Source: Eubacteriales bacterium | GTDB lineage: Bacteria; Bacillota; Clostridia; Oscillospirales; CAG-272 | NCBI GenBank assembly: GCA_045633625.1 | Contig: JAZQYP010000065.1 | Location: 135,665 to 199,664 of the forward strand | DNA length: 64,000 bases | Reading direction: 5' to 3' | Shown: piece by piece, positions 6,274 through 40,874 of the stretch | Layout of the letters: each line of letters starts with the position of its first letter | Position numbering within the stretch: position 1 is the first letter of the stretch | Notes under the pieces: model-generated | Database searches by the model: none | Told to the model about the DNA's origin: nothing | Seen by the model: the letters and a program-made list of their open reading frames with translations, nothing else | Translations under genes and position numbers: made by a program

Positions 6274-6288
6274 AATTCTTCACCACTT

Positions 6289-6321
6289 GGGGCACTTCCT
6301 CGGAAGTGCCCCTTTTGTTTT
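6289..6321 (+). terminator. rho-independent terminator
   Basis: ggggcacttcc..ggaagtgcccc followed by ttttgtttt. Confidence 0.85.
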
Positions 6322-6460
6322 GCTCAAAATGTGAAGAAGGGAACCGAAAACCAAAAATGAGCCCCGAAAAATTTTCGTAATTAATCACTTTTGTTCTTGA
6401 CATTATGAGTCGCGTGTGGTAAAATTATACTCGGTAAATTTTATATTTATGGAGGAAAAA

Positions 6461-7963: not shown

Positions 7964-7977
7964 TCATATTAACATTT

Positions 7978-8005
7978 GGGCGCTCCCTACGGGGCGCCCT
8001 TTTTA
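7978..8005 (+). terminator. rho-independent terminator
   Basis: gggcgctccc-tac-ggggcgccc followed by ttttt. It is homologous to the terminator at 9705. Confidence 0.85.
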
Positions 8006-8202
8006 ATTGCGCTATTTTGTGATTTTGGCAATATCAATTAGAGCTTTGTTTAGTGATAGTCATCAAGTCTTGGTTCGTTTTGCAACAATTCAAATTGTGG
8101 CTTTTGTGATAAATAGACAAAAAACTTTGTGTAATTTATACATTGAAAAAAAGAATCAACTGTCGTATAATATATTTATAATTAGGTTTAATGGAGGAAA
8201 AT

Positions 8203-9690: not shown

Positions 9691-9704
9691 TTATATTGAC
9701 GTCA

Positions 9705-9731
9705 GGGCGCTCCCTATGGAGCGCCCTTTTT
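9705..9731 (+). terminator. rho-independent terminator
   Basis: gggcgctccc-tat-ggagcgccc followed by ttttt. Confidence 0.85.
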
Positions 9732-9895
9732 GATCGCTTTTAGCGAGCTATCAGGTGTTGTTTTATTTTGCAATAAGTTGAGTTGTTTTTTTGTGGTATT
9801 TGAACAAACAACTTTGTATATTTTGCGTATTGAAAAGAAAAAATGGCTGCTGTATAATTATAATATATTTATTATAATTTTTGGTGGAGGAAGAT

Positions 9896-11392
9896 ATGAA
9901 GACAACACTAAAAGCTTTGTCGCTCCTGCTCGCCCTCGTTATGCTCGCTTGCAGCTTTGTAGCTTGCGGCGATACGAGGACACCTGACGACAAGGACTCT
10001 GATACCGTTGCAGGCACCACGGAGGACAACGTGAATGATGGTTCTCTTAAGGTCATAGATTGGGGCGGAGAGACCTATTCTATTCTTGGACGTGACGGAA
10101 ACGGCCGCTCACAATTTGATAACTTTGAGGTAGGCTACGACGAGCTTCCCGTTGATGTGGTGGGTATCGCAGTTTACAAGAGAAATGAAAACCTCAAGAA
10201 CAAATATAATTTCAAGGTAGAGCCTATCTTTTCAGTTGACGTTGCGGCTACCGCACAGGTGGCATATGAGTCGGGAGACGACCTTTACGATCTGGCTATC
10301 TACCGCCATAAGGACGTTCAGGCGCACGCACAGAGCGGATATCTTCTTAATATTGCTGATCTTGATCATATAAATCTTGATTATGAGTGTTGGTATCAGG
10401 ACGTAAACAAGGAGCTTACCATTGGCGATAAGCTTTATTATACGACTAACAACTTCTTGCTTCAGGATAAGCATAGATTCTGGTACTGCTTCTACAACAG
10501 AGAGATTGCGCGCGACCTTAACCTTGGATATTTCGAGGATATGGTCGATAACAACACGTGGACACTTGAAAACGTAACAAGGCTTACAAAGCAGGGATAT
10601 TCCGATAAGGACGGTGAGGCAGGCAGATCTCCGGAGGATCACTATGGCTACGGTGCACAGGAATATTACGCAATAGCGGCCCTTGCTTTCGGTGCAGGCT
10701 TCCGTCTTACCGAAAAGGACAATTATAATATTCCTAAGCTTGTTGGAGCAACCGATCACGCTATAAATATTCTTGACAAGGTATTTGGTCTTATGTACCA
10801 CAATGCGTCGTGGATCACCCCGAGAGAGGATCCCGGTGTTGCTAACAAGGCTTCAGAGGCTGAGCTTATGTTTAACGAGGGAAGACTTTTGTTGCTTTCT
10901 ACCTTCACGTCCTCTATCGACTATTTCCTTTCGGACGATGAGTTCTTTGAATACGGAGTGCTTCCCAACCCCAAGATTGATTCCGAGCAGGAGAACTACT
11001 ATAGCTTCACACACGTTACAACAGGTAGCTTCCTTGCAGTTCCTTACACAGTTATGGACGAGGAGTTTGCAGGCTATGCTCTTGAGGCGATCTCGGAGGA
11101 GTCTACCGATACCTCCTACACAGCCTACATAGACACCAAGTGTAAGTATCAGGATGCTTATGATGAGGACTGTGCAAGAATGTTTGACCTTTGCTTTAGA
11201 AACTGTACGTACGATATTGGTGCATTCTGCGACTTTGGTGGAATTTTCTCGGCTCTTTGGAGAGGAGAGGATGGCGGTGGCGGTCTTGCAGCGCTTGGAA
11301 AGGGAAGCATTTATAAGAGATTTTACGATACTTATAAGAAGGGTGCACAGTCTGATATCGACGAGATAGTTGAAAAATATTCTAAAGAGTAA
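9896..11392 (+). CDS. SBP-like lipoprotein, paralogue 4 (most divergent)
   Basis: 498 aa starting at MKTTLKALS (GGTGGAGG RBS). Lipobox is LACSFVAC. TTGAAA-17-TATAAT lies upstream. Confidence 0.7.
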   Translation: MKTTLKALSLLLALVMLACSFVACGDTRTPDDKDSDTVAGTTEDNVNDGSLKVIDWGGETYSILGRDGNGRSQFDNFEVGYDELPVDVVGIAVYKRNENLKNKYNFKVEPIFSVDVAATAQVAYESGDDLYDLAIYRHKDVQAHAQSGYLLNIADLDHINLDYECWYQDVNKELTIGDKLYYTTNNFLLQDKHRFWYCFYNREIARDLNLGYFEDMVDNNTWTLENVTRLTKQGYSDKDGEAGRSPEDHYGYGAQEYYAIAALAFGAGFRLTEKDNYNIPKLVGATDHAINILDKVFGLMYHNASWITPREDPGVANKASEAELMFNEGRLLLLSTFTSSIDYFLSDDEFFEYGVLPNPKIDSEQENYYSFTHVTTGSFLAVPYTVMDEEFAGYALEAISEESTDTSYTAYIDTKCKYQDAYDEDCARMFDLCFRNCTYDIGAFCDFGGIFSALWRGEDGGGGLAALGKGSIYKRFYDTYKKGAQSDIDEIVEKYSKE

Positions 11393-17075: not shown

Positions 17076-17130
17076 TTGACAAATATACACAATAGATGTA
17101 TAATATTCACATATTAACGAATATATATTC
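17076..17130 (+). promoter_or_regulatory. proximal argG promoter plus downstream palindrome
   Basis: TTGACA (17076-81), 17-nt spacer, TATAAT (17099-104). The perfect palindrome GAATATATATTC lies at 17119-17130. Confidence 0.55.
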
Positions 17131-17145
17131 ACGAGAGGTGCAATT

Positions 17146-18372
17146 ATGGAAAAGAAGGATATCAAAAAGGTTGTTCTTGCGTACTCGGGCGGACTTGATA
17201 CGTCCATCATCATTCCGTGGCTCAAGGAGAATTATAATAACTGCGAGGTCATCGCTGTAAGCGGTAACGTAGGTCAGGCGGACGAGCTTGAGGGTCTTGA
17301 GGAAAAGGCTATAAAGACGGGTGCGTCGAAGTGCTACGTTGAGGATCTTACCGAGGAATTTATTGACGATTACGTAATCCCCACCGTTATGGCGGGTGCT
17401 AAATATGAGGAGTACCTTCTCGGTACCTCCTTTGCTCGTCCCGTTATTGCAAAGCGTATCGTAGAGATCGCAAAGGCAGAGGGCGCTGACGCTATCTGCC
17501 ACGGTTGTACGGGTAAGGGAAACGATCAGGTTCGTTTCGAGCTTACAATTAAAGCATTCGCACCCGATATGCACATTATCGCGCCTTGGCGTGAGTGGGA
17601 CATCAAGTCCCGTGAGGAGGAGATAGAGTATGCGGAGGCGCATAACGTTCCTCTTAAGATAAACCGTGAGACTAACTACTCGAAGGATAAGAATATGTGG
17701 CACCTCTCTCACGAGGGACTCGATCTTGAGGATGCAGGAAACGAGCCTCTTTACGAGAAGGAGGGCTTTCTTGAGATGGGCGTATCTCCCATTCAGGCAC
17801 CCGACGAGCCTACGTACATAACTCTTGATTTTGAGGCGGGTCGTCCCGTTGCCTTTAACGGCGAGAAGATGAGTGCTAAGGATATCATACTTGAGCTCAA
17901 TAAGGTTGGCGGAGCTAACGGAATAGGACTTCTCGATATCGTCGAGAACCGTCTTGTAGGTATGAAGTGCCGCGGTGTTTACGAGACTCCCGGCGGAGCT
18001 ATCCTTTACTTTGCTCACAACTACCTTGAGACTCTTTGTCTTGATAAGTACACCGCACACAAGAAGGCGGAGCTTTCTATAACCTTTGCTGATCTCGTTT
18101 ATAACGGTCAGTGGTTCACACCTCTTCGTGAGGCTCTTTCGGCGTTCGTTGATAAGACTCAGGAGAACGTAACCGGCAAGGTTAGAATCAAGCTTTACAA
18201 GGGTAATATGATAAAGGCAGGAGCTTGGAGCGATTACTCTCTCTACAGCGAGGAGATCGCAACCTTTGGTGAGGACAACGTATACAATCAGGCAGATGCT
18301 GCCGGATTTATCAACCTCTTTGGTCTTCCCATAAAGGTTCAGGCTCAGGTCAATAAGAAGAACGGAAAATAA
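17146..18372 (+). CDS. argG: argininosuccinate synthase
   Basis: [22 protein letters not shown]; 408 aa. Confidence 0.95.
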
Positions 18373-18434
18373 TCCTAAAGGAGAACTTTGCCTACCGCGC
18401 AAAAGCGCGGTGGGCAAACTGTGTATAAATAGCT

Positions 18435-19808
18435 ATGGAAAAAATGTGGTCGGGAAGGTTTTCTAAGGCGCTTGACAGCGTTGCAGACGACTTCAATTCT
18501 TCAATTCACTTCGACAGCAGAATGTATGAGCAGGACATAAAGGGCTCGCTCGCGCACGCATCGATGCTTGCTATGCAGGGGATAATCACCGAGAGTGATC
18601 TTGATGCGATAAGCGAGGGTCTTAAGTCAATACTCGACGATATAAAGAGTGGAGTGCTTGAGATAGATATGGCGGCTGAGGACATACATATGTTCGTTGA
18701 GGGAGAGCTTACGAAGCGCATCGGTGACGTCGGCAAAAAGCTCCATACAGCGCGTAGCCGTAACGATCAGGTGGCACTTGATATAAGACTTTATCTGCGC
18801 GATAAGTGTGATGAGATAGTAGAGCTCACAAAGGAGCTTATCGTGGCAGTGACCGACAAGGCAGAGGAAAATAAGACGGTAATTATGCCGGGATATACTC
18901 ATCTGCAAAGAGCACAGCCGATAATATTCGGTCATCAGCTTATGGCATATTCTATGATGCTCCTTCGCGATATAGGCAGAATTGAGGACGCAAAGAAGAG
19001 AATGAATCTCTCGCCCCTCGGCTCGTGCGCGCTTGCGGGAACGACGTATAACACAAACAGAGAGCTTGTTGCAGAGAAGCTCGGCTTTGACGGAATCACA
19101 CTCAACAGTATTGACGGAGTTTCAGATAGAGACTTCTGCCTTGAGCTTATGAGCGCATTCTCGATACTTATGATGCACCTCTCGCGCTTTTCGGAGGAGA
19201 TCATCCTCTGGTCGAGCTGGGAATTCAAGTTCATAGAGCTTGACGACGCGTACACCACGGGCTCGTCCATTATGCCCCAGAAGAAGAATCCCGATATGGC
19301 GGAGTTAGTTAGAGGTAAGACGGGCAGAGTTTACGGCGATCTTATGGCGCTTCTCACGACCCTTAAGGGACTCCCCCTTGCATACAACAAGGATATGCAG
19401 GAGGATAAGGAGGCAATTTTTGATGCGGTCGATACCGTAATTATGTGTCTTAAGGTCTTTACACCTATGATCGCAACGATGAGTGTCCGTGCCGATAATA
19501 TGTACCGCGCGGCGCAGAATGGATTTATAAACGCGACCGATCTTGCTGACTACCTCGTGAAGCGTGGAATGCCCTTCAGGAGCGCGTATAAGGTGGTCGG
19601 TCAGATAGTGGCGCGTTGCATTGAAGAAAAATGCGTGCTTGACGATCTGTCTCTTGAAAAATACAGAGAGCACAGTGAGCTTTTCGAAAATGATCTTTAC
19701 GAGGATATCTCACTTGAGACCTGCGTAAAAAAGAGAATTTCGGCAGGCGGCACGTCGCAGGAGTCGGTCGAGGCGCAGATAGTATACGTAAGAAACGAAT
19801 TAAAGTAA
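18435..19808 (+). CDS. argH: argininosuccinate lyase
   Basis: MWSGRF, GYTHLQRAQP, GSSIMPQKKNPD. The start could be 18435 or 18444. Confidence 0.95.
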   Translation: MEKMWSGRFSKALDSVADDFNSSIHFDSRMYEQDIKGSLAHASMLAMQGIITESDLDAISEGLKSILDDIKSGVLEIDMAAEDIHMFVEGELTKRIGDVGKKLHTARSRNDQVALDIRLYLRDKCDEIVELTKELIVAVTDKAEENKTVIMPGYTHLQRAQPIIFGHQLMAYSMMLLRDIGRIEDAKKRMNLSPLGSCALAGTTYNTNRELVAEKLGFDGITLNSIDGVSDRDFCLELMSAFSILMMHLSRFSEEIILWSSWEFKFIELDDAYTTGSSIMPQKKNPDMAELVRGKTGRVYGDLMALLTTLKGLPLAYNKDMQEDKEAIFDAVDTVIMCLKVFTPMIATMSVRADNMYRAAQNGFINATDLADYLVKRGMPFRSAYKVVGQIVARCIEEKCVLDDLSLEKYREHSELFENDLYEDISLETCVKKRISAGGTSQESVEAQIVYVRNELK

Positions 19809-19840: not shown

Positions 19841-20746
19841 ATGAAACATTTGCTGAAGCTTCAGGATCTTAGCGAGCAGGAGATACTTGATATCCTTGAT
19901 CTTGCGGACAAGCTGAAGTATGAGAGAAAAAACGGAATCAAGCACCACGTTCTTGAGGGAAAGACACTCGGAATGATCTTTGAGAAGTCGTCGACGAGAA
20001 CGAGAGTTTCCTTTGAGGTCGGTATGTACGATCTCGGAGGCACGGCGCTCTTCCTTTCATCGCGCGATCTTCAGATAGGACGCGGCGAGCCCGTGGAGGA
20101 TACTGCAAGAGTTCTTTCGCGTTACCTTGACGGAATAATGATAAGAACCTTTGATCAGGAGGAGGTCGAGTCTCTCGCTTCCTGCGGTCAGATCCCGATA
20201 ATCAACGGACTTACCGACTACTGTCATCCCTGTCAGGTCCTTGCCGATCTTATGACTATAAGAGAGCATAAGGGCGAGATAGCGGGCAAGAAGCTCTGCT
20301 ACATCGGTGACGGAAATAATATGACAAACTCCCTTATCGTTGGCGGTATCAAGATGGGAATGAGCGTGTCTGTCGCTTGTCCCAAGGGATATGAGCCCGA
20401 TGCGAAGATAATGGAGTGGGCAGCGGCTACGGGAAGATTTACTTGCACAGATAACGTACTTGAGGCTGCAAAGGATGCAGACGTCCTTTATACTGACGTA
20501 TGGGCTTCCATGGGTCAGGAGGAAGAGGCAGAAGCACGTAAGAAAGTATTCCGTGGTTACCAGATTAACAGTGACGTTATGGCAGTTGCGGCTAAGGACG
20601 CAATGGTGCTCCACTGTTTGCCTGCGCACAGAGGCGAGGAGATAACCGCTGACGTGCTCGAGGCTCACGCTGATGAAATTTTTGACGAGGCAGAAAACAG
20701 GCTTCATGCGCAGAAGGCAGTGCTTGTCAAGTGTCTCGGAGAGTGA
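19841..20746 (+). CDS. argF: ornithine carbamoyltransferase
   Basis: SSTRTRVSFE, HPCQVLADL, HCLPAHRGEE. GGAGG RBS. Confidence 0.9.
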   Translation: MKHLLKLQDLSEQEILDILDLADKLKYERKNGIKHHVLEGKTLGMIFEKSSTRTRVSFEVGMYDLGGTALFLSSRDLQIGRGEPVEDTARVLSRYLDGIMIRTFDQEEVESLASCGQIPIINGLTDYCHPCQVLADLMTIREHKGEIAGKKLCYIGDGNNMTNSLIVGGIKMGMSVSVACPKGYEPDAKIMEWAAATGRFTCTDNVLEAAKDADVLYTDVWASMGQEEEAEARKKVFRGYQINSDVMAVAAKDAMVLHCLPAHRGEEITADVLEAHADEIFDEAENRLHAQKAVLVKCLGE

Positions 20747-20755
20747 GGTTAATAT

Positions 20756-21817
20756 ATGAAAAAAGCTTATCTTGTGCTTGAAGACGGTCACGTCTTCGAG
20801 GGATTTTCCTTCGGTGCCGAGGGAAAATGTGTAGGCGAGCTCGTTTTTAACACGCAGACGGTGGGATATAACGAAGCGCTTACAGACCCCGCTTATTATG
20901 GGCAGATCATTATGCAGACCTTCCCGATGATAGGCAATTACGGAGTTATTGAGGAGGATTTTGTCGGTACACCGCGCGTCAGCGGATATGTGGTGCGTGA
21001 GTGGTGCGAGAAGCCCTCGAACTTCAGAAGTCAGTATGACATCGATAAGTTCTTAAAGGATCACGGAATCCCCGGAATTTATGGCGTCGACACAAGACAG
21101 ATCACAAAGATCCTTCGCGAGAACGGCGTTATGAATGCTTGCATCTCTTCTGAAATTCCTTCAAATTTCGATGAGATCAAGACCTTTAGGATCAAGGACG
21201 CGGTCGCAGCTTGCTCGGTTACCGAGGAGAAGGTGTACGAGGCTGAGGGCGACAAGAAATACGAGGTAACACTCGTTGATTACGGCTCACATACCGATGC
21301 CGTGAAGGCGCTTACCGAGAGAGGTTGCCGTGTAACTGTAGTTCCTTACAATACGACGGCTGATGCGATACTCGCAAAGAAGCCCGACGGTGTTCTTCTT
21401 TCAAACGGTGCGGGCGACCCTGCTGAGAACGGCGCTTGCATCGGTGAGATAAAGGCTCTTATGGGCAAGTGCGCTATGTTCGGCATATCCCTCGGACACG
21501 AGCTTATGGCTCTCGCCGATGGCGGTATGACGTACAAGCTCAAGTACGGTCATAGAGGCTCTAATCAGCCTGTACGTGAGGCAGAGGGAACAAAGACCTA
21601 TATTACCGCGCAGAACCACGGCTATGCAGTAGCTTCCGATAGCACGGCTCACGGTAAGGTAAGCTATATCAACGTAAACGATAAGAGCTGTGAGGGAATT
21701 GAGTACGAGGGACTTCGTGCTTTCTCGGTACAGTTCTTGCCCGATAACTGGAAGGGCCAGAGAGGTACGGCCTTCCTTTATGACAAATTTATAGAAATGA
21801 TGGGAGGAGAGAGATAA
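20756..21817 (+). CDS. carA: carbamoyl-phosphate synthase small subunit homologue with degenerate glutaminase triad
   Basis: Collinear with CarA throughout (LEDG..F.G, VFNT...GY.E.LTDP.Y, TAQNHGYAV). However, FGICLGHQ reads FGISLGHE and QGHPE reads QFLPD. Confidence 0.85.
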   Translation: MKKAYLVLEDGHVFEGFSFGAEGKCVGELVFNTQTVGYNEALTDPAYYGQIIMQTFPMIGNYGVIEEDFVGTPRVSGYVVREWCEKPSNFRSQYDIDKFLKDHGIPGIYGVDTRQITKILRENGVMNACISSEIPSNFDEIKTFRIKDAVAACSVTEEKVYEAEGDKKYEVTLVDYGSHTDAVKALTERGCRVTVVPYNTTADAILAKKPDGVLLSNGAGDPAENGACIGEIKALMGKCAMFGISLGHELMALADGGMTYKLKYGHRGSNQPVREAEGTKTYITAQNHGYAVASDSTAHGKVSYINVNDKSCEGIEYEGLRAFSVQFLPDNWKGQRGTAFLYDKFIEMMGGER

Positions 21818-24800
21818 TGCCGCTTAATAAGGATATTAAAAAGGTACTCGTAATTGGCTCCGGCCCCATCGTCATCGGTCAGGCGGCAGAGTTTGACTAC
21901 GCGGGTGCGCAGGCGTGCCGCGTGCTCAAGGAGGCAGGACTCAACGTAGTACTCGTTAACTCTAACCCTGCTACCATTATGACCGACAGCGCGCTCGCTG
22001 ACGAAATATATCTTGAGCCTCTTACTGTTGAGACGGTAAAGAGAATAATCGAGAAGGAAAAGCCCGACTCGATCCTCGCAGGACTTGGAGGACAGACAGG
22101 ACTTACCATCGCTATGCAGCTCAACCACGAGGGCTTCCTCAAGAGCCACAACGTGCGTCTTCTCGGTACAAATGCCGAGGCAATAGATAAGGCAGAGGAC
22201 CGTCAGCTCTTCAAGGACACTATGGAAGAGATCGGTCAGCCCTGTATTCCTTCCGATATCGCAAACGACGTACATACCGCACTTGTTATCGCGGGTAAGA
22301 TAGGCTATCCTGTAATCATTCGTCCCGCATTCACACTTGGTGGCGCGGGCGGCGGTGTTGCCAACAACCCCGAGGAGCTTGCGATCGTCGCAAAGACGGG
22401 ACTTGACGCATCTCCCATAAGCCAGATACTCGTTGAGAAATACATCTTTGGATGGAAAGAGATCGAGTTCGAGACGATGCGTGACTCGGCAGGAAACGTA
22501 ATCGCCGTTTGTAGCATGGAGAACTTTGACCCCGTTGGAATCCACACGGGTGACTCTATCGTTGTAGCTCCCGCACTCACACTTTCGCCTAAGGAGTATC
22601 AGATGCTCCGTACCGCATCCCTTGAGATAATCTCGGCGCTCGGTATCGTCGGCGGATGTAACTGTCAGTTCGCGCTCAATCCGAATAGCTTTGAGTATGC
22701 CGTAATCGAGGTTAACCCCAGAGTTTCTCGTTCCTCGGCACTTGCAAGTAAGGCAACGGGATACCCGATAGCTAAGATCACATCAAAGATAGCTCTCGGT
22801 TATACGCTTGACGAGATAATGAACGATATTACAGGCAAGACCTGTGCGTGCTTTGAGCCCGCAGTTGACTACGTCGTTGTCAAGATGCCCAAGTGGCCCT
22901 TTGAGAAGTTCACCAATGCCAGCCGTGTGCTCGGCACACAGATGAAGGCAACGGGCGAGGTAATGTCGATAGGCACCTCCTTTGAGGCGGCTATGATGAA
23001 GGCGGTAAGAGGAGCAGAGATATCTCTTGATACTCTCAATGCCGCTCCCATATCGGACAAGCCCCTCCTTGAGAGACTTGCTATTTCCGACGACCGCAGA
23101 CTCTTCACTGTTTTTGAGGCACTCAAGGCAGGTATTGATATAGAAACGATCTATAACATAACGCGTATCGACCGTTGGTTCCTCAATAAGCTTATGAATC
23201 TCGTTGACTTTGAGAACGATCTCATTGAGAACGGACTTGGCCTTGAGGAGTACAGAAAGGGAAAGAAGCTCGGTTACACCGATAAGGTGCTTACTCGCCT
23301 TGGCGGTAACGAGGATATCCCGAAGCTTCGCGCTTCCTACAAGATGGTTGACACTTGTGCCGCTGAGTTTGACGCAAAGACACCTTACTTCTACTCGACC
23401 TATGATAAGGACTGCGAGTCTCGCACCTTCTCAAGAAGTGGCAAGCCCGTAATCCTTGTTCTTGGCTCAGGACCTATCCGTATAGGACAGGGAATTGAGT
23501 TCGACTACTCGTCAGTTCACTGCGTATGGGCACTCAAGAAGCTCGGCTACGACGTTGTTATCGTCAACAATAACCCCGAGTCCGTTTCTACCGACTACGA
23601 TACGGCAGACAGACTTTATTTTGAGCCTCTCACTCCCGAGGACGTTATGAACATCATCGAGATAGAGAAGCCCGTTGGAGTCGTTGTTGCCTTTGGTGGA
23701 CAGACGGCAATAAAGCTTACCAAGTTCCTCGATGATAACGGAATCAAGATCCTCGGTACTTCAGCAGAGGGAATTGACACCGCAGAGGACAGAGAAAAGT
23801 TCGATGCGCTCCTTGAAAAGTTCAATATCAAGCGTCCCGCAGGTGCCGGAGTTATGACTACAAACGAGGCACTTGAGGCCGCTAATAGCATCGGCTACCC
23901 CGTATTGCTTCGTCCCTCTTACGTTATAGGTGGACAGAATATGTCTATCGTTTATAACGATACAGAGGTAAGAGCATATATGACGAGAATTCTCTCGACA
24001 GGCATTGAGAATCCCGTTCTCGTTGACAAGTACATGAAGGGAACAGAGCTTGAGGTTGACGTAATCTCCGACGGTAAGGACGTTCTTATCCCCGGAGTTA
24101 TGCAGCACGTTGAGCGCGCGGGAGTTCACAGCGGTGACTCTATCGCGGTATATCCTCCCTTCAACATAAACGACAAGATGCTTGAGACGGTTGTCGAGTC
24201 CTCGACAAAGCTCGCTTTGGCGCTTGGAACAAAGGGACTTGTAAATATTCAGTACCTCATCTGGCGCAACGAGCTTTACGTTATCGAGGTTAACCCCCGT
24301 GCGTCGAGAACGATTCCTTACATCAGTAAGGTAACGGGAGTTCCTATGGTCGACCTTGCAACTAAGGTTATGATAGGCGAGCCTCTTGCTGATCTCGGCT
24401 ACGGCACAGGTCTTTACAAGACTCCTCCTTACTTTGCGGTTAAGGTTCCCGTATTCTCCTTCGAGAAGCTTACAGATGCTAACTCCTACCTTGGACCTGA
24501 GATGAAGTCCACGGGTGAGGTGCTTGGTCTTGGAAGCAATCTTCAGGAGGCAATTTTCAAGGGAATGACATCTGCAGGCTTCAAGATAAAGGTTCCCACT
24601 CCCGGTTCTGACGTCGGTGTGTTCATCAGCGTTGACGAGCATGATCTCAAGGAGATCGTATCCCTTGCAAAGAAGCTCGACGACCTTGGAATGAAGATCT
24701 ACGCGACAAGAGACACGGCACGCGCTATCGAGGGACTCGGTATCGACGTTCGTACGGTCAGAGGCATCAATGATAGCCGTGATGCGTTCGATCTTATCGA

Positions 24801-25851
24801 GGACGGACTTATCAGCTATATCGTTTACACGGGCGCGCTCTTTAGCACAACGATAGACGATTATATCGCGCTTCACCACAAGGCGCTTCAGCACTCGGTC
24901 GCTTGCCTTACGTCGCTTGATACGGCAAATGCACTTGCAGACGTTATTGCAAGCCGTTACAACCAGCAGAACACCGAGCTCGTTGACATCAACGATATGA
25001 GAAGCGAGCCTCGTAAGCTTAAGTTCTCTAAGATGCAGGGAACGGGAGACGACTATATCTTCATCGAGAACTTCGAAGGCAAGATCACTTGTCCCGAGTC
25101 GCTCTGCCTTACCTTCTGTGACAGACATTACGGTATTGGCGGTAACGGAATCGTGCTTATGGAGAAGTCGGACGTGGCTGATGCTAAGATGCGAATCTTC
25201 AACCGCGACGGTAGTGAAGGCAAGATGGCAGGTAACTGTATCCGCTGCGTTGGTAAGTACCTCTACGATAATAAGCTTGTTGAGAGCGACAAGATGACTA
25301 TCGAGACGGGAAGCGGTGTTAAGAGACTCAAGGTCTACACGCGTAATGGCAAGGTGACCTCGGTAAGAGTTCATATGGGTGCTGCAAGTATTCTTACAAA
25401 GAATATTCCTACTACCATCAAGGAAGAGAGAATCGTTAACTATCCTCTCACCGTTGGTGGCAAGGATTATAAGATAACCTGCGTTTCGACGGGTAACCCC
25501 CACTGCGTAGTATTTACCGATTACGTTGACGGCGTCAAGGTAAAGCAGATCGGTCCTATGTTCGAGAATGCAAGCGTATTCCCTGAGAGAATAAACACAG
25601 AGTTCATTCGTGTTGTCAACCCCACCACCATCAAGATGCGTGTCTGGGAGAGAGGTAACGGAGAGACACTCGCGTGCGGTACAGGAGCTTGCGCGGCAGT
25701 CGTTGCGGCTGTTGAGAACGGCTTCTGCAAGATGGGCGAGGACATAACCGTTAAGCTTCGCGGCGGTGACCTTATCGTAAACTATACAGAGGATGACGTG
25801 ACCCTCACGGGTAACGCCGAGCTTGTGTATAGCGGCGAGATTGAGATCTAA
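21817..25851 (+). CDS. carB: carbamoyl-phosphate synthase large subunit fused in frame to a DapF-like (diaminopimelate epimerase fold) domain
   Basis: 1344 aa. Residues 1-~1060 are a full CarB: two GSGP(I)xIGQ..EFDY ATP-grasp halves and an MGS-like tail. Residues 1061-1344 carry KMQGTGDDY, STGNPHCVVF, ERGNGETLACGTGACA. The start overlaps the carA stop (TAATG). Confidence 0.9.
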   Translation: MPLNKDIKKVLVIGSGPIVIGQAAEFDYAGAQACRVLKEAGLNVVLVNSNPATIMTDSALADEIYLEPLTVETVKRIIEKEKPDSILAGLGGQTGLTIAMQLNHEGFLKSHNVRLLGTNAEAIDKAEDRQLFKDTMEEIGQPCIPSDIANDVHTALVIAGKIGYPVIIRPAFTLGGAGGGVANNPEELAIVAKTGLDASPISQILVEKYIFGWKEIEFETMRDSAGNVIAVCSMENFDPVGIHTGDSIVVAPALTLSPKEYQMLRTASLEIISALGIVGGCNCQFALNPNSFEYAVIEVNPRVSRSSALASKATGYPIAKITSKIALGYTLDEIMNDITGKTCACFEPAVDYVVVKMPKWPFEKFTNASRVLGTQMKATGEVMSIGTSFEAAMMKAVRGAEISLDTLNAAPISDKPLLERLAISDDRRLFTVFEALKAGIDIETIYNITRIDRWFLNKLMNLVDFENDLIENGLGLEEYRKGKKLGYTDKVLTRLGGNEDIPKLRASYKMVDTCAAEFDAKTPYFYSTYDKDCESRTFSRSGKPVILVLGSGPIRIGQGIEFDYSSVHCVWALKKLGYDVVIVNNNPESVSTDYDTADRLYFEPLTPEDVMNIIEIEKPVGVVVAFGGQTAIKLTKFLDDNGIKILGTSAEGIDTAEDREKFDALLEKFNIKRPAGAGVMTTNEALEAANSIGYPVLLRPSYVIGGQNMSIVYNDTEVRAYMTRILSTGIENPVLVDKYMKGTELEVDVISDGKDVLIPGVMQHVERAGVHSGDSIAVYPPFNINDKMLETVVESSTKLALALGTKGLVNIQYLIWRNELYVIEVNPRASRTIPYISKVTGVPMVDLATKVMIGEPLADLGYGTGLYKTPPYFAVKVPVFSFEKLTDANSYLGPEMKSTGEVLGLGSNLQEAIFKGMTSAGFKIKVPTPGSDVGVFISVDEHDLKEIVSLAKKLDDLGMKIYATRDTARAIEGLGIDVRTVRGINDSRDAFDLIEDGLISYIVYTGALFSTTIDDYIALHHKALQHSVACLTSLDTANALADVIASRYNQQNTELVDINDMRSEPRKLKFSKMQGTGDDYIFIENFEGKITCPESLCLTFCDRHYGIGGNGIVLMEKSDVADAKMRIFNRDGSEGKMAGNCIRCVGKYLYDNKLVESDKMTIETGSGVKRLKVYTRNGKVTSVRVHMGAASILTKNIPTTIKEERIVNYPLTVGGKDYKITCVSTGNPHCVVFTDYVDGVKVKQIGPMFENASVFPERINTEFIRVVNPTTIKMRVWERGNGETLACGTGACAAVVAAVENGFCKMGEDITVKLRGGDLIVNYTEDDVTLTGNAELVYSGEIEI

Positions 25852-25861
25852 ATAAAAAACA

Positions 25862-25892
25862 AACCGTGTGTCCGAAAGGACACACGGTTTTT
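25862..25892. terminator. bidirectional rho-independent terminator
   Basis: aaccgtgtgtcc-gaaa-ggacacacggtt followed by ttt, with an A-run upstream. Confidence 0.9.
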
Positions 25893-25900
25893 AGTTTAAT

Positions 25901-26953
25901 TTAATGTGGGTTGCGATTGTAGCTGCCTGTATTGCCTGTGTTGTAGCTGCCCGAGTAGGTACCCGAGTTGCCACCGCCCGAGCCATTGCCTCCGCCGAAG
26001 CCTCCACCCGTATAACCGCCATTATCGTTGTTGTCTTTGTTGTTCTTATTCTTCTTGTTTTGCTTTATACCGTTGATTATAAGGTAGATCGCAACGCCTG
26101 CGAATATAAGGAGAATTATAATGTGAAAAATGTCTGTGATAAATAATGTTTTACCGAATACGTTCTCCATAGTGTCAACAACTATGACTGTAGGAATATC
26201 TGTAGCCTCGGTAAAGTCTGCAAGAGCGAGGTCTACGGTCTCGTTAGTAATTGAAATATTAGAATAGTTAACAACGCGAGAGGGCGCGGGATCGGTGTTT
26301 GAAACCTCGCGTCTGAAGGATGAGGAAAGTCCAAGTCTTTCTACGTTTACTGTCATCTTATCCATCATCATTGCAAGATTTGACGAGAGCGAGAACTCAT
26401 AGTATTCGCTGTTGATAGAGCCGCGTACCGTCTGACCGAATGCCGTATATTCGTCACCGAACATAGCGTTTATCTCGCTTGCAATATTGTTTCCCACCCA
26501 CGCAATGCAGTAATATTCGTTGCACTCCTCGTTGGTGAGGAAGACGAGAAGAATATTATTCTCATACGCAGTGTGAGCTGCAAATTCCTCTGAATACCTC
26601 ATGTCCGCATAATTTTGGAACTGCGCCTCGTCATATTTAATTGTGCCGCCGTTAGCTACGTTAGTAACCGACGAGCCGATTATCGAGAAAAGCATTACTG
26701 CGACTACCAAAAGCATTATAACAGGGAACATTATCATTCCAAGCAGACCGCCGAGACAGCCACCTCCGCCATAATATCTGCGTCGACCGTACCAGCCGAA
26801 ATGCGGGCCGTGAAAATGTGGGCCGTGAAAATGCGGTCCGCGAGGTCCGCCTCCAAAGCTACCTCCGCCGAAGCCACCGCCTCCACCGAAGCCGCCTCCT
26901 CTTGAGCCTCCTCCAAATCCGCCACCGCGGGATCCTCCACCTGGTCCTGGCAT
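25901..26953 (-). CDS. two-TM membrane protein with Gly-rich (RGG/FGG) N- and C-terminal tails, possibly TPM-like central domain
   Basis: 350 aa. N-terminus is PGGGSRGGGFGGG..., then (GPHFH)x3, TM, a ~190-aa domain, TM, and KNKNNKDNN + a GGYTGGGFGGGNGSGGG tail. AGAGAGG RBS. Confidence 0.65.
   Translation of the reverse strand: MPGPGGGSRGGGFGGGSRGGGFGGGGGFGGGSFGGGPRGPHFHGPHFHGPHFGWYGRRRYYGGGGCLGGLLGMIMFPVIMLLVVAVMLFSIIGSSVTNVANGGTIKYDEAQFQNYADMRYSEEFAAHTAYENNILLVFLTNEECNEYYCIAWVGNNIASEINAMFGDEYTAFGQTVRGSINSEYYEFSLSSNLAMMMDKMTVNVERLGLSSSFRREVSNTDPAPSRVVNYSNISITNETVDLALADFTEATDIPTVIVVDTMENVFGKTLFITDIFHIIILLIFAGVAIYLIINGIKQNKKNKNNKDNNDNGGYTGGGFGGGNGSGGGNSGTYSGSYNTGNTGSYNRNPH
26798..26839 (-). 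repeat. three in-frame 15-bp repeats encoding GPHFH
   Basis: + strand reads gaaatgcgggccgtgaaaatgtgggccgtgaaaatgcggtcc. Confidence 0.9.
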
Positions 26954-26982
26954 AATTAATTACCTCTCTTTCTGATAAGTCG

Positions 26983-27594
26983 TTATTTTATTTCTTCAAA
27001 GTCCGATGCGGGATGCTTGCAAAGAGGGCATACGTAGTCCGCGGGAAGAGTCTCCCCCTCATAAACGTAGCCGCATATCTTGCATACGTAGCCCTTCTTC
27101 TTGGGTGCATTTGGCTTGGGCTTGACGTGAGCGAAGTAGTAAGAGTACGTCATCGTTGGCTCTTTGGTGAGGTTATGTGCCTCTGTGAGCGTGCAGACGA
27201 ACATTCCGTGCGTGTCAAGATCAACGTAGCTCTCAACCTTAAGGGATATAAATGAATTGATATAATCAGTCATAACAGCAAGACCGTTTTGCGAATGGAA
27301 TATCTTCATTCCCTCAAATTTATTTGTGTCGCGGCCACTCTTAAAGCCAAATCTCTCAAAGATAGAGAAGGGCGCTTCCTCTGTGAGCACGTTTACGTTG
27401 AGCACACCGCTCCCCTTTATGACGTCGTGCGAATAATTATTCTTGTTTATTACCACACCTACGCGGTTGGGCGTGTTTGTGAGCTGAATAACAGAATTCA
27501 GGATACAGCCGTTGTCCTTAACACCGTCGTTTGACGTTACAACGTAAAGACCGTAGCCGATATTAAACAAAGCAGTTACGTCTATATTGTCCAT
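26983..27594 (-). CDS. flavin reductase-like domain fused to C-terminal rubredoxin
   Basis: N-terminal flavin-reductase pattern (YGLYVVTS..DNGCILNSV). C-terminal CKICGYVY...CPLCKHP rubredoxin knuckles. AGGAGG RBS. Confidence 0.8.
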   Translation of the reverse strand: MDNIDVTALFNIGYGLYVVTSNDGVKDNGCILNSVIQLTNTPNRVGVVINKNNYSHDVIKGSGVLNVNVLTEEAPFSIFERFGFKSGRDTNKFEGMKIFHSQNGLAVMTDYINSFISLKVESYVDLDTHGMFVCTLTEAHNLTKEPTMTYSYYFAHVKPKPNAPKKKGYVCKICGYVYEGETLPADYVCPLCKHPASDFEEIK

Positions 27595-34014: not shown

Positions 34015-36405
34015 TTATGCTCTGAGGTTGATGCCAAGCTGCTTGTCAAGAGCGGTGAGTATCTTATCGGATACCTTGTCTGCTTCTTCAACTGTAAGTG
34101 TTCTGTCAGCCGCGCGGAGCACTACGCGGATAGATACCGACTTCTTGCCCTCGCCGATCTGGTGACCTGTGTATATGTCGAAGAGGTAAACGTCCTCAAC
34201 GAGCTTACCGCCTGCGGTTGCCATGATCTTCTCGATCTTGCCGACCTCGAGATCCTTGTCGCAAACAAAGGAGAAGTCACGAGTCGAAGCGGGGAACTTG
34301 GGAAGTGCCTTGAAGTGCTTCTCGGTGGTCGAGAGAGCGAATATCTTGTCAAAGTCAAGCTCTGCCGCATAAACGGGAATGGAGATTCCGTAGTTCTGCA
34401 TAACGAGAGGATGAACCTGACCGAGAATTGCAACTGTGGTATCACCAACCACTACCTTTGCACATCTTCCGGGGTGGTAAGAGGGGTTATCGGTGACAGC
34501 CACGTATTCAGCACCCTTGATAGAAGCGAGACTCAAGATATTCTCGCAAACACCCTTGATGCTGTAGAAGTCAACCTTACCGTACATACCGACGGTAGTT
34601 ACCTTGTTCTCGTCGGGAAGTGTGTCAGCACCCGTGGGGATATAAACGGAAGCATTCTCAAAGAGAGCTACGTTCTCGTTGCTGAGGTTTACGTTTCTCG
34701 CAATTACCTCAAGGAGAGAGGGAAGCGCAGTAGTTCTCATAACGCTTGTATCCTCGCCCAAGGGGTTGGAGATAACGATAGACGTGCGGAGAGCGCTATC
34801 AGCGGGAAGTCTTACCTTGTCGTAATACTTAGGGCTGATGAAGGAGAACGTCTGGATCTGCGAGATGCCCATTCCGATCATCGCATTCTCAACGTTTACC
34901 TCAAACTGCTGCTTCTTGGATCTGCCACCGCGAGTGGTCTCTGCCTTGATGTTGGTAGAGGGGATCTTGTTGTAGCCCCAAATTCTTGCTACCTCCTCGG
35001 CAATATCGTTCATACAGCCAAGGTCAACTCTGAAGGAGGGAACGGTTATCTTGCCGTCCTCAACCTTGCAGTCAAGGGAGGTAAGGACAGACTTCATATA
35101 ATCGGCATCAATATCGGTGCCAAGGAACTTGTTTATAACGTCGGGATTAAGTGTAAGAACCGTAGGCTCGCGCTTTGTGGGGTAAACGTCGATCATTCCG
35201 CCAACGACCTCACCTGCGCCAAGAAGCTCGATAAGCTCGCAAGCGCGCTCAAGTGCGCCGTAGCAGTTTTCTGCGTCAAGACCCTTCTCAAATCTTGCAG
35301 AGCTTTCGGTACGCATACCGTTCTTCTTTGCGGTAACACGAACCGAGCCGCCGTTGAAGCAAGCAGACTCAAATACAACTGTGGTCGTACCGTCGGTGAT
35401 CTCACTGTTCTCGCCGCCCATAACACCCGCAAGTGCTACTGCCTTTTCCTTATCGGCAATAACGAGCATTGTGGAGTCAAGAGTATGCTCCTGAGAGTCA
35501 AGGGAGATGAACTTCTCGCCGTCAGCCGCGCGGCGAACGTTTATAGCCGATCCGCCAAGGCAAGCGTAGTCAAACGCGTGCATAGGCTGACCGTACTCAA
35601 GCATTACGTAGTTAGTAATATCAACGATGTTGTTGATGGGTCTTACGCCACTCGCGCGAAGTCTCATACGGAGCCAAAGAGGCGAGGGAGCTACCTTAAC
35701 GTTCTTTACAACTCTTGCCGCGTATCTGTAGCAGAGGTCGGGAGCGGATATCTGGACAGAGAGGTAATCCTTAACGTCACCTGTGCCTTCAGCCTTTACA
35801 ACGGGAGTGTGGAGCTTAAGCTCACGATCAAAGGAAACTGCAGTCTCACGTGCAAGACCGATAACAGAGAGGCAGTCGGGGCGGTTTGAGGTGATCTCAA
35901 ACTCAACAACGCTATCGCGGAGCATAAGTGCCTCGCGGATATCCTTGCCTATCATAGCCTCAAAGCTCTGGTCGAGTATGAGGATTCCATCGGTTGCGGC
36001 ACCGGGCATATCGTGCTCAGTAAGTCCAAGCTCGGCGATAGAGCAGAGCATTCCGTGTGATTCAACGCCACGGAGCTTTCCCGACTTGATAACAACTCCA
36101 CCGGGGAGCTTTGCAACAGGGAGTGCCGCGGGAACTATCGCGCCCTCAAACACGTTCTGCGCGCCGGTAACTATCTGCGTAGTCTTACCTTCGCCAATAT
36201 CCATCTGGCAGATCTGAAGGTGGTCACTGTTCTCGTGGGGAGCGATTGAGATGATCTTTGCTACAACGACGTTTTCAACGTCCTCTGCAAGCATCTCAAA
36301 GCCCTCGACCTTAGAGCCTGTGTCGGTCATTCTGTCGGAATACGCTTTATTATCTATATCGCTGACGTCAACGAAGTCAGCAAGCCAATTTCTTGATAAA
36401 TTCAT
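34015..36405 (-). CDS. pheT: phenylalanine--tRNA ligase beta subunit
   Basis: 796 aa. Architecture is tRNA-binding N-domain, B3/4, B5 and a C-terminal FDX-ACB-like domain. It lies directly downstream of pheS. Confidence 0.95.
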   Translation of the reverse strand: MNLSRNWLADFVDVSDIDNKAYSDRMTDTGSKVEGFEMLAEDVENVVVAKIISIAPHENSDHLQICQMDIGEGKTTQIVTGAQNVFEGAIVPAALPVAKLPGGVVIKSGKLRGVESHGMLCSIAELGLTEHDMPGAATDGILILDQSFEAMIGKDIREALMLRDSVVEFEITSNRPDCLSVIGLARETAVSFDRELKLHTPVVKAEGTGDVKDYLSVQISAPDLCYRYAARVVKNVKVAPSPLWLRMRLRASGVRPINNIVDITNYVMLEYGQPMHAFDYACLGGSAINVRRAADGEKFISLDSQEHTLDSTMLVIADKEKAVALAGVMGGENSEITDGTTTVVFESACFNGGSVRVTAKKNGMRTESSARFEKGLDAENCYGALERACELIELLGAGEVVGGMIDVYPTKREPTVLTLNPDVINKFLGTDIDADYMKSVLTSLDCKVEDGKITVPSFRVDLGCMNDIAEEVARIWGYNKIPSTNIKAETTRGGRSKKQQFEVNVENAMIGMGISQIQTFSFISPKYYDKVRLPADSALRTSIVISNPLGEDTSVMRTTALPSLLEVIARNVNLSNENVALFENASVYIPTGADTLPDENKVTTVGMYGKVDFYSIKGVCENILSLASIKGAEYVAVTDNPSYHPGRCAKVVVGDTTVAILGQVHPLVMQNYGISIPVYAAELDFDKIFALSTTEKHFKALPKFPASTRDFSFVCDKDLEVGKIEKIMATAGGKLVEDVYLFDIYTGHQIGEGKKSVSIRVVLRAADRTLTVEEADKVSDKILTALDKQLGINLRA

Positions 36406-36420
36406 TACTATTACCTCCTA

Positions 36421-37434
36421 TCAGAACTGCTCAAGGAATCGCATATCGTTCTCATAGAGATGACGCATATCGTCGATTCCGTAGCGAGCCATAGCAACTC
36501 TCTCGATGCCTACACCAAATGCAAAGCCGCTGTAGACCTCGGGGTCGATGCCGCAGTTAGAGAGAACGAAGGGGTGTACCATTCCCGCACCGAGAATTTC
36601 TATCCAACCCTCACCCTTACAAAGTCTGCAGCCCTTACCGCCGCAAACGAAGCAGGAAACGTCAACCTCTGCCGAGGGCTCTGTGAAGGGGAAGTGGTGA
36701 GGACGGAAGCGGAGCTTTGTCTCTTCGCCGAAGAGTGCCTTTGCGAAGGTCTCAAGCGCGCCCTTAAGGTCGCCCATAGTGATGCCCTTGTCAACAACAA
36801 GTCCCTCAAACTGATGGAAGAGGGGAGAGTGGGTTGCGTCAACTGCGTCGGAACGGTAAACACGTCCGGGAGATACCACTCTTATAGGGGGCTGCTGCTT
36901 CTCCATAGCTCTTACCTGAACGGGAGAGGTCTGGGAACGGAGAAGAATGTTGTCTGTGATGTAGAAGGTGTCCTGTGTGTCTCTTGCAGGGTGATCCTTC
37001 GGAATATTGAGCGCCTCAAAGTTGTAGTAATCATACTCAACCTCAGGACCCTCGATAATGGAAAAGCCCATACCGATAAAGATGTTCTCAAGCTCACGCT
37101 GTGTAGCTGTGAGGGGGTGAATGTGACCCATTGCGGGTGCCTTTCCGGGAACGGTTACGTCCACCTTTTCTGCGATAAGCTTGTTCTCAAGCTCCTTTGC
37201 GGCAAGCTCTGTCGAGCGCTCCTTTATAGCGGTCTCGATCTCGGCTCTTACCTCGTTTGCAAGCTGACCTACGATAGGTCGCTCTTCGGGGGAGAGTGCT
37301 CCCATTCCGCGAAGGATGCTTGTAAGCTCACCCTTCTTGCCAAGGTATTTGATGCGAAGCTCCTCAAGATTTGCCTCGGGGGAAGCAATAGCCGCCATCG
37401 CTTCCGCCTTGATAAGCTGAAGTTTTTCTCTCAT
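36421..37434 (-). CDS. pheS: phenylalanine--tRNA ligase alpha subunit
   Basis: [41 protein letters not shown]. Confidence 0.95.
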
Positions 37435-37462
37435 TTTATATTTCCTTTCTCAAATTATAATC

Positions 37463-37710
37463 AAAAAATAAACCCATCCTAATAGAATAGGACGGGTAAA
37501 AAAATACTCGCGGTACCACCTAAATTTCGGCTCGGTTATAACAAAGCCAACACTTTGCGGGCGTTAACGGTGCCTGCCGTATCTCGCTACGTTTTCACAA
37601 GATCTGCTCCGAAGGGAAATGCAAATATTTCGATATACGCTCGCTTTCAGCCGTGTCGAGCTCTCTGTGGTATATCCTTGAAATACCGCTGACTTCATCA
37701 TAGCATTTAC
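37463..37710 (-). promoter_or_regulatory. T-box riboswitch leader (Phe) with terminator/antiterminator
   Basis: The - strand reads AAATTTAGGTGGTACCGCGAG (T-box motif, 37508-37528). AGAGAG and GCTGAAAG stem-I elements are present. The terminator is acccgtcct-attctatt-aggatgggt + tttatttttt (37463-37497). A UUC codon lies at 37611-37613 in the putative specifier region. Confidence 0.8.
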
Positions 37711-39724: not shown

Positions 39725-39939
39725 CGTTTGGAACTCCTCCTGAATTGGTTGGTACATACAATATAATATAAGAAAATATTATTCAAGATATTATACCACC
39801 TTTTTTACATAAAATCAATCAGAATAATGGGAATGTTTCAAGTTTCGGCTATCTGCACAATTATGGAAGAAACAAGTTGTGCATATTTCCCACAAACTCG
39901 AAGAAAGATAAGAGAAAAAGGGGTTTTGGAGGGCAAAAA

Positions 39940-40821: not shown

Positions 40822-40874
40822 ATTCCTTTGCTTTCGAATATGATTTCGTAAGAACAAAAAGGAAGGTAAAGAGA

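Follow-up and report, generated by a model that had tools for sequence, protein, structure and literature searches.

Closest described systems

The carbamoyl-phosphate synthase (CPS) of Escherichia coli, CarAB (1jdb, 1bxr, 1c30), and the free-standing diaminopimelate epimerases (DapF) of Haemophilus influenzae (2gke, 1gqz), Bacillus anthracis (2otn) and a cyanobacterium (9mro) are the references to which the two parts of a fused gene, carB::dapF, are compared here. The gene lies in a stretch of 64,000 nucleotides of a Eubacteriales bacterium (GTDB lineage Bacteria; Bacillota; Clostridia; Oscillospirales; CAG-272; GenBank assembly GCA_045633625.1, contig JAZQYP010000065.1, positions 135,665 to 199,664 of the forward strand), and this whole stretch, numbered from its first letter, is called the window below. 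The DapF fold that follows CarB in the window protein has lost the first of two catalytic cysteines. The fusion thus joins a textbook allosteric enzyme to an antibacterial target in at least 592 species-level genomes; it has passed unremarked in databases, and no description of a CarB-DapF fusion was found in the searchable literature.

DapF epimerises diaminopimelate (DAP) by a two-base Cys/Cys mechanism, and Cys73 (H. influenzae numbering) is a general acid/base in every characterised member. Variants with a single Cys do not complete the inversion, although substrate binding and proton abstraction from one stereoisomer are still possible. In the same two-lobed racemase superfamily, trans-3-hydroxy-L-proline dehydratases arose from proline-racemase-like enzymes by the loss of one Cys (6r76, 4k7g). 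It has also been reported that E. coli DapF, as a separate and catalytically intact protein, binds non-covalently to the RNA pyrophosphohydrolase RppH and activates it (6d13, 6vck; PMC6061791, PMC4227774). Mammalian CPS I (5dou, 6uel) is a single polypeptide activated by N-acetylglutamate, which uses ammonia, is controlled through its C-terminal allosteric domain and retains a dead glutaminase domain (PMC4655335), and an inactive dihydroorotase-like domain is retained in fungal CAD-type proteins (PMC6022934). Among cultured Oscillospiraceae, F. plautii was curated as a Ddh user with a separate DapF beside lysA, the source not telling whether the fusion is present (Ashniev et al. 2022, PMC9026213 Table S2).

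Compared with E. coli CarAB, the window CPS has the same four-domain CarB layout and passes the same equivalog models, with the same two-domain fold of CarA and the same translational coupling of carA and carB. It differs in about 285 extra C-terminal residues that form the DapF fold, in a CarA without Cys269, His353 and Glu355, and in its location in an arginine operon, whereas carAB of E. coli is shared between arginine and pyrimidine synthesis. Furthermore, four (K954, K993, N1015, T1017) of six E. coli CarB residues which we take to bind inosine or uridine monophosphate appear not to be conserved in what is a weak alignment. The module shares 40-50% identity with canonical DapFs and passes their family model; its predicted fold matches theirs with target-normalised template-modelling (TM) scores of 0.84-0.92, and the pocket residues and the second catalytic Cys are kept. 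It differs from them in an Ala for the first Cys, an Asp for N11 and an Asn for the Asp of the GADG motif, and it is neither free-standing nor accompanied by DAP-pathway neighbours. Fusions of Ruminococcus, Acutalibacter and Neglectibacter (WP_081777235.1, WP_322181277.1) have the same architecture, junction motif and carA-carB::dapF order but keep the first Cys in the motif MCGN(G/A)IRC, often have dapL as the next gene and in two cases have a second, canonical dapF; they are probably true bifunctional enzymes.

The carB::dapF gene and its occurrence

The initial annotation had described a single uninterrupted open reading frame (ORF) at 21817-25851 on the forward strand. This is borne out by the ORF list, by a translation without internal stop (ATG start, 1344 codons, then TAA) and by equivalog matches on both sides of the junction. 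The CarB part (residues 1 to about 1056, 21817-24984) matches the CarB equivalog NF003671 over residues 1-1048 with 1442 bits (cut-off 599) and TIGR01369 with 1410 bits (cut-off 1027), and thus belongs to the CarB family. Its layout consists of two ATP-grasp halves, an oligomerisation domain and an MGS-like allosteric domain (Pfam CPSase_L_D1 and D2 each twice, D3, and MGS), the last at residues 946-1032 (24652-24912) and aligning to residues 946-1053 of E. coli CarB. CarB usually ends after this domain at about 1030-1075 amino acids; here the chain has 1344, and a DapF fold follows directly. The DapF module (residues 1061-1344, 24997-25848), supported by TIGR00652, PDB alignments, column statistics and an AlphaFold 2 (AF2) model, matches the DapF equivalog TIGR00652 over residues 1069-1342, which cover positions 2-268 of the 270 in the model, with 272 bits (cut-off 115), or 276 bits when the module is taken alone. 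The ORF is therefore a complete CarB joined end to end with a complete DapF fold (about 1061-1344).

At the junction (residues 1047-1068, RYNQQNTELVDINDMRSEPRKL; 24955-25020) the C-terminal tail of CarB leads directly into the N-terminus of DapF. Met1061, whose codon is the ATG at 24997-24999, is indeed the start of the DapF part that had been proposed, and no stop, spacer or ribosome-binding site lies between the parts. No Shine-Dalgarno-like motif was found upstream of this ATG (ACACCGAGCTCGTTGACATCAACGATATG), whereas the start of carB itself has GGAGAGAG upstream, followed by a TAATG overlap with carA. The junction is of fixed length, its motif SR[YF]xxxNTELVDINx[ML]R is kept in both clades of fused proteins described below, and residues 1050-1060 are predicted with a local confidence (pLDDT) below 50.

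As an alternative to a true fusion, the initial annotation had allowed for a carB stop lost very recently. A scan with one genome per species confirmed the fusion in the at least 592 genomes, which are mostly metagenome-assembled genomes from gut and rumen titled Oscillospiraceae, Ruminococcus, Acutalibacter and the like, or unclassified Clostridia, and which include the cultured strains Ruminococcus sp. FC2018, Neglectibacter caecimuris, Ruminococcaceae bacterium AM07-15 and Oscillospiraceae bacterium CM74B_53B. The best 120 matches to a junction-spanning query (residues 901-1344) are 58-83% identical to it with 90-100% query coverage (117 of the 120 at 98% or more), and each has both the MGS-like and the DAP_epimerase Pfam domains. 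Separate genes in close relatives had been named as what would speak against the fusion; the opposite was found, with all 80 fetched relatives fused and a stop-to-stop frame of 1305-1427 codons through the junction in each fetched locus with sufficient upstream DNA. Full-length fused proteins of 1342-1359 amino acids are present in RefSeq/GenBank, all named only 'carbamoyl-phosphate synthase large subunit', and 31 members make up the protein cluster of the nearest relative, in which full-length proteins of 1344 amino acids come from many independent contigs. The fusion covers two deep clades, whose CarB parts are just 60-76% identical to that of the window. A recent loss of the stop is contradicted by these genome counts, frames and clades.

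The read-level check across the junction that had been advised was answered with Logan contigs from three gut or rumen metagenomes (X3 record 22, 24498-25600; X2 record 12, 24444-25053; X1 record 2, 24824-25043) and one bovine metatranscriptome (run X9 record 28, 24442-25039). All of them cross position 24997 with zero gaps, and they come from relatives that are about 85-97% identical to the window. The exact window strain was not found in the sequencing runs (best word share 0.15), and a database look-up returned no record of the exact 1344-residue protein. This missing record, and one related contig (L084) with a TAG in frame within its linker, are what could be said for an error of assembly or sequencing, or for a recent loss of the carB stop in this strain alone, an explanation with practically no chance of being right, which is refuted by the fused genomes including isolates, the full-length frames and RefSeq proteins and the protein clusters, and against which the gap-free contigs of four runs stand as well.

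The TAG of L084, a 2.4-kb metagenome contig, lies at 1350-1352, at the place of a Tyr codon in relatives (ILASR*SEENTEPVDIN); it splits carB from a Cys-less dapF module and is a nonsense variant or an error. Two candidates for standalone Cys-less DapFs were rejected, as P0122 is the product of this linker TAG and P0232 is a fusion severed by the end of its contig (L085), so that neither stands for an unfused family.

The initial annotation's view of a true CarB/DapF-family gene fusion is thus supported, and a Rosetta-stone pattern is seen, in which the parts are fused in these genomes and thousands of standalone DapFs exist elsewhere. For organisms in which CarB and DapF are separate, the literature searches gave no evidence of a functional or physical link between them, and the fusion may reflect no more than a former gene adjacency.

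Catalytic cysteines, pocket and fold of the DapF module

The first catalytic Cys (Cys73 in the motif CGNG) is replaced by Ala1138 in the window protein (GCA, 25228-25230). In the three solved DapFs with printed alignments (2otn, 9mro, 3ejx), CGNG aligns to AGNC of the window. The C73S mutant of the H. influenzae enzyme scores slightly above the wild type against the window (154.6 versus 154.1 bits) and C217S scores 4.5 bits lower, from which it follows that the window module has Cys at position 217 but not at position 73; the structures of both mutants (2q9h and 2q9j) are among the structure matches. The second catalytic Cys (Cys217 in the motif ACG[ST]G) is Cys1287 (25675-25677).

This replacement is not confined to the window. 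A column census of position 73 in 204 verified CarB-fused domains gave 152 Ala, 18 Gly, 2 Ser, 1 Arg, 1 Thr and 30 Cys, as against 117 Cys, 2 Ala and 1 Ser in 120 standalone DapFs. Thus 174 of the 204 are non-Cys, with Ala or Gly in 97% of these and Ser in about 1%. In the same 174 sequences Cys217 is 98% conserved, and the ten positions N64, G74, N75, N157, H159, N190, E208, R209, C217 and G218 are 97-100% conserved. The window keeps N1129, G1139, N1140, N1227, H1229, N1260, E1278, R1279 and G1288. We take N64, N75, N157, N190, E208 and R209 to form the DAP pocket, as in inhibitor complexes of the H. influenzae enzyme, and all six have their equivalents in the predicted pocket of the window module.

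Forty of 47 near-invariant positions of canonical DapF are retained in the Cys-less sequences. The relaxed ones, for the most part located at the Cys73 side, are N11 (Asp1078 in the window), the Asp of GADG (Asn1110), M77, C79 and the Trp before ERG. A relocated catalytic Cys was tried as a replacement, since the window has Cys1141 (AGNC) three residues past Ala1138. It was rejected for the clade as a whole, position +3 being S/A/C/N/V and position +6 C/S/N across it with no alternative nucleophile conserved, and is still conceivable for the window itself. Clade-specific conserved substitutions (N1085, G1088, C1092, E1116) are found in the first strand and helix region, outside the catalytic loops.

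The AF2 model of the DapF part (pLDDT above 90) predicts the two-lobed DapF fold, and Foldseek matched it to 2otn (E 7e-36) and, as the closest structure, to the ligand-bound DapF 9mro (target-normalised TM score 0.92, root-mean-square deviation 1.8). The claim of a 'complete DapF' in the initial annotation therefore holds for the fold and is overstated for the catalytic unit, because the Cys73 equivalent is replaced throughout the clade to which the window belongs. By sequence and predicted fold the module belongs to the DapF family, but as it lacks one of the two Cys it is not filed here as a diaminopimelate epimerase.

In one fused lineage (L085, the locus of P0232) the module has decayed further, with the GNPH and ERG motifs lost and the second Cys kept, so that some lineages are degenerating past the loss of Cys73.

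Clades, selection and gene neighbourhood

A neighbour-joining tree of 69 full-length CarB parts was used as the backbone for the history of the fusion. It has two clades. In the window clade all 41 loci are non-Cys at position 73, which points to one early loss, and the sister clade keeps Cys73 save for three separate losses (L077, L069, L057). Cys73 would therefore have been lost on the CarB tree in one ancient event and three independent ones, four in parallel. A neighbour-joining tree of the DapF domain only was set aside. The fused proteins did not form one clean clade in it, given the shortness of the domain and the presence of four non-CarB fusions that were mislabelled as fused.

The loss of Cys73 was not followed by a faster divergence of the domain. 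In the Cys-less clade the DapF part diverges 1.46 times as much as CarB (p(DapF)/p(CarB)), against 1.51 times in the Cys-retaining clade, and the DapF domain as a whole is about 58% identical over the divergence compared. When the window is compared with L001, its nearest relative, the ratio of nonsynonymous to synonymous substitution rates (dN/dS) is 0.088 for the DapF part, 0.043 for CarB, 0.060 for argF and 0.066 for carA, with dS at 1.3-1.5 and thus near saturation. The equal divergence in both clades together with the low dN/dS argues that the domain has been maintained by selection after the loss of the Cys. An essential catalytic residue has thus been lost under sustained purifying selection, as in a pseudoenzyme.

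The gene neighbourhood also differs between the clades. In an unbiased survey of 61 loci, the commonest neighbour in the two ORFs downstream of the fusion was a class-I/II aminotransferase, and the eight that were tested are LL-diaminopimelate aminotransferase (dapL) equivalogs (TIGR03542, 491-551 bits, cut-off 365). With the window included, dapL follows the fusion in 12 of 26 Cys-retaining versus none of 41 Cys-less loci (Fisher p=1.6e-6); it lies directly 3' of the fusion in L036, L037, L042, L048, L051, L054, L058, L060, L072, L074, L078 and L079, all of them Cys-retaining. The presence of dapL beside the Cys-retaining fusions points to an ordinary origin, in which the neighbouring genes carB, dapF and dapL were involved and the first two were joined by loss of the carB stop. 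In two of these genomes a second, canonical standalone dapF (MCGNGIRC) is located just downstream of the fusion, at 11369-12211 in L074 (Acutalibacter), where pyrG comes next, and at 13138-13995 in L072 (Neglectibacter). Both resemble the fused Cys-retaining domains most, so that a local duplication is suggested, and their presence means that epimerase redundancy exists in this group.

On these grounds, the following history may be proposed. The ancestral order would have been carB, dapF and dapL in adjacency, and the carB stop would have been lost in an ancestor common to many gut and rumen Clostridia. In the sister clade, where both Cys and the dapL neighbour were kept, the module probably still epimerises LL-DAP for that reason. 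In the window clade the first Cys would have changed to Ala or Gly once and early. Traces of the adjacency before fusion were looked for around two of the closest standalone DapFs, neither of which adjoins carB: P0128 lies between ruvX and a glyoxalase gene, and P0129 between a response-regulator gene and pyrG. Near the fusion in the window, none of dapL, dapA, dapB, lysA and ddh was found, so that no association with the DAP/lysine pathway is seen there, and the 64-kb window holds no second dapF.

Arginine operon and a small subunit without glutaminase triad

The fusion is the last gene of an operon argG-argH-argF-carA-carB::dapF on the forward strand, which extends from a promoter-like site to a terminator-like hairpin. 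The site TTGACA-17-TATAAT (17076-17104), 42 bp upstream of argG, agrees with the sigma-70-like consensus at 12 of 12 positions and, by this consensus match, is the probable operon promoter. It is followed by argG (17146-18372; argininosuccinate synthase, 408 amino acids; NF001770 equivalog, 588 bits, cut-off 334), argH (18435-19808; argininosuccinate lyase, 457 amino acids; TIGR00838, 639 bits, and Pfam Lyase_1 and ASL_C2) and argF (19841-20746; ornithine carbamoyltransferase, 301 amino acids; TIGR00658 equivalog, 431 bits, cut-off 281), whose product uses the carbamoyl phosphate made by CPS. The CPS small subunit gene carA (20756-21817; 353 amino acids; NF009475, 391 bits) comes next, its stop overlapping the carB start. 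Ten bp past the stop of the fusion, a hairpin at 25861-25890 with a 13-bp stem (7 GC pairs) and T-runs on both strands resembles a bidirectional intrinsic terminator, and the genes downstream are on the opposite strand, convergent with the operon. As this hairpin ends the operon, no dapL follows in the window. The operon as a whole indicates a CPS of the arginine pathway.

An ORF of 436 amino acids on the reverse strand (17107-18417) was considered as a conserved unknown neighbour and rejected, because it is a shadow of argG without family matches. It is longer than argG and has conserved tblastn matches in relatives, and such a shadow ORF could mislead annotation.

The CarA of this operon had been called atypical, and rightly so. 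It passes the family model cut-offs, but the class-I amidotransferase triad of a glutamine-hydrolysing CPS is absent: C269, H353 and E355 of E. coli correspond to Ser245 (21488-21490), Leu328 (21737-21739) and Asp330 (21743-21745). Among PDB entries it is matched best by the C269S mutant from E. coli (1c30_B), with FGISLGH and VQFLPD in the alignment. The triad is kept in 50 of 62 related loci with carA upstream, all three positions are replaced by varied residues in 11, and one (L068) keeps the Cys and has lost His and Glu. The triad-less CarAs, which include those of the nearest relative (G-L-D) and of Ruminococcus sp. FC2018 (G-D-E), occur dispersed through both clades and independently of the DapF Cys; several separate inactivations are indicated. 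In four loci (L014, L019, L035, L039) there is no carA between argF and carB::dapF, and the large subunit apparently works there without an operon-encoded small subunit. The triad-less CarA of the window is still constrained, as its dN/dS value given above indicates.

Since the glutaminase triad is missing, free ammonia is probably the nitrogen source of the window CPS, as it is for mammalian CPS I (PMC4655335). CPS I is among the structure matches of the window CarA, and in both the glutaminase-like part has Ser for the catalytic Cys and is kept under constraint. By analogy, the use of ammonia and control through the C-terminal allosteric domain may hold for the window enzyme too, which is unlike CPS I in that the latter has no DapF-like domain. 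As CarA has been inactivated or lost again and again, ammonia-dependent CPS may have evolved repeatedly where ammonia is plentiful.

Proposed role of the module and alternative explanations

The reading that we favour, and to which we give an even chance, is that the operon encodes an arginine-pathway, probably ammonia-using CPS in which the DapF module is a non-epimerising, ligand-binding pseudoenzyme with a regulatory or assembly role. With Ala at the position of Cys73, the two-base chemistry of DapF implies that the module performs no Cys/Cys epimerisation. The pocket, Cys1287 and the fold have been kept under undiminished purifying selection without Cys73, and for this reason the module is read as a pseudoenzyme that would bind a ligand, be it LL-DAP, meso-DAP or a closely similar compound, and leave its configuration unchanged. 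Being fused directly behind the allosteric domain of CarB, it could act on that adjoining domain or on the assembly of the synthetase, as an extra regulatory or assembly module. The activation of RppH by E. coli DapF (PMC6061791, PMC4227774) is a precedent for a DapF fold as the regulatory partner of an unrelated enzyme, and the DapF-RppH structure 6d13 is among the structure matches to the module. The two cases differ in that the window module is covalently fused to a CPS and is without Cys73.

Several points weigh against this reading. The regulatory role is deduced from position and conservation, and the full-length AF2 model (predicted TM score 0.64) gives no confident inter-domain geometry. 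The conserved Cys1287 and the carboxylate-holding residues would fit retained chemistry at least equally well, and water or another residue, in the window for example Cys1141, could replace Cys73 as proton donor. Should the Cys-less genomes turn out to have no further dapF, ddh or dapL, meso-DAP would still have to come from the module. To our knowledge, there is also no established metabolic logic between DAP and arginine synthesis.

A more specific form of the pseudoenzyme reading is put forward as a tentative and, on present evidence, somewhat doubtful proposal. The Cys-less module may be a dedicated DAP sensor that, through the open/closed movement of DapF and its position behind the allosteric domain, gates or tunes the synthesis of carbamoyl phosphate and hence of arginine. 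If so, it would be a new allosteric input to CPS and the first natural pseudoenzyme derived from DapF, and the CPS under its control would here be a bacterial enzyme with a dead glutaminase that uses ammonia, in parallel to mammalian CPS I. In any case, control of arginine synthesis by DAP is a hypothesis that can be tested.

Of the alternatives to a pseudoenzyme, a module that still works as a diaminopimelate epimerase survives best, though we regard it as unlikely. CarB::DapF would then be a bifunctional protein with uncoupled halves, and the proton donor on the L face would be water in the cavity that Ala or Gly leaves, or another residue, in the window for example Cys1141. The score well over the DapF equivalog cut-off, the conserved pocket, Cys1287 and helix-dipole motifs, the purifying selection equal to that in the Cys-retaining clade and the single dapF of the 64-kb window all agree with it, as does the sister clade, which resembles an ordinary bifunctional enzyme beside dapL. 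However, the residue lost is one of the two general acid/base residues of every characterised DapF, its replacements are almost all Ala or Gly, with Ser rare and no alternative nucleophile conserved, and the residues that are relaxing (N11, the GADG Asp, M77, C79) are those on the Cys73 side. The absence of dapL linkage from all 41 Cys-less loci also argues for the non-epimerising pseudoenzyme.

It is improbable that the module is a functionless relic without a ligand role, kept since the folding or assembly of CarB has come to depend on it (entrenchment). Inactive domains are indeed kept in carbamoyl-phosphate enzymes, namely the glutaminase domain of CPS I (PMC4655335) and the dihydroorotase-like domain of fungal CAD-type proteins (PMC6022934). 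The junction is fixed in length and conserved, and the L085/P0232 lineage has lost GNPH and ERG as well. Such a relic would not explain why ten polar pocket residues and Cys1287 are 97-100% conserved in a domain with about 58% overall identity, nor why its rate is not raised relative to the catalytically intact clade.

A different, single-base enzyme is distinctly improbable. Here Cys1287 alone would catalyse an elimination, dehydration or isomerisation of DAP or a related amino acid. Precedents exist in the same superfamily, where the loss of one Cys changed function in the trans-3-hydroxy-L-proline dehydratases relative to the proline/hydroxyproline racemases (6r76, 4k7g), and PhzF and the O-ureidoserine racemase DcsC (7vdy) are also among the structure matches. 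The strong conservation of Cys1287, the four parallel losses of Cys73 with the domain kept each time and the clade-specific substitutions would be in line with it. On the other side, the dehydratases are a different family (about 15% identity), and the window module has no sign of a dehydratase-type substrate. No change is seen in the distal-site residues that recognise the other amino-acid end of DAP; the substrate should therefore still be DAP-like, and we know of no single-base reaction on a DAP-like substrate. Furthermore, the site has gained no new polar catalytic residue, and the clade-specific changes appear to lie in the first strand and helix region rather than in the catalytic loops.

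For metabolic reconstruction, the fusion carries a risk in pathway calls. An automated procedure may score lysine/DAP synthesis as complete via a module that is probably unable to epimerise, or may overlook the module altogether. The intact clade, the Cys-less clade and the three further independent losses also form a natural pseudoenzyme experiment, in which an enzyme domain was kept past the loss of a catalytic base.

Other features of the window

Between the fusion and enolase, the reverse strand (25901-27594) encodes a protein of 350 amino acids that is Gly-rich at its C-terminus and could be assigned to no family with confidence, as well as a flavin-reductase/rubredoxin fusion. Neither gene is present in the nearest relative L001, where enolase comes directly after the fusion.

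At 4786-11392 on the forward strand there are four tandem paralogous genes for proteins of about 500 amino acids, 67-82% identical to each other, with lipoprotein-type signal peptides (…LALVMLASCF…) and no match in Pfam or NCBIfam; next in line come a DUF5058 gene, an unknown ORF and an M20 peptidase gene. A T-box leader (37485-37710, reverse strand, 109 bits) is located upstream of the reverse-strand genes pheS and pheT (pheT at 34015-36405), and a forward-strand ORF at 36460-37482 without family match probably just shadows pheS. As two sporulation genes, gpr (germination protease) and spoIIP, lie at 39877-42131 on the forward strand, the organism is probably a spore-former.

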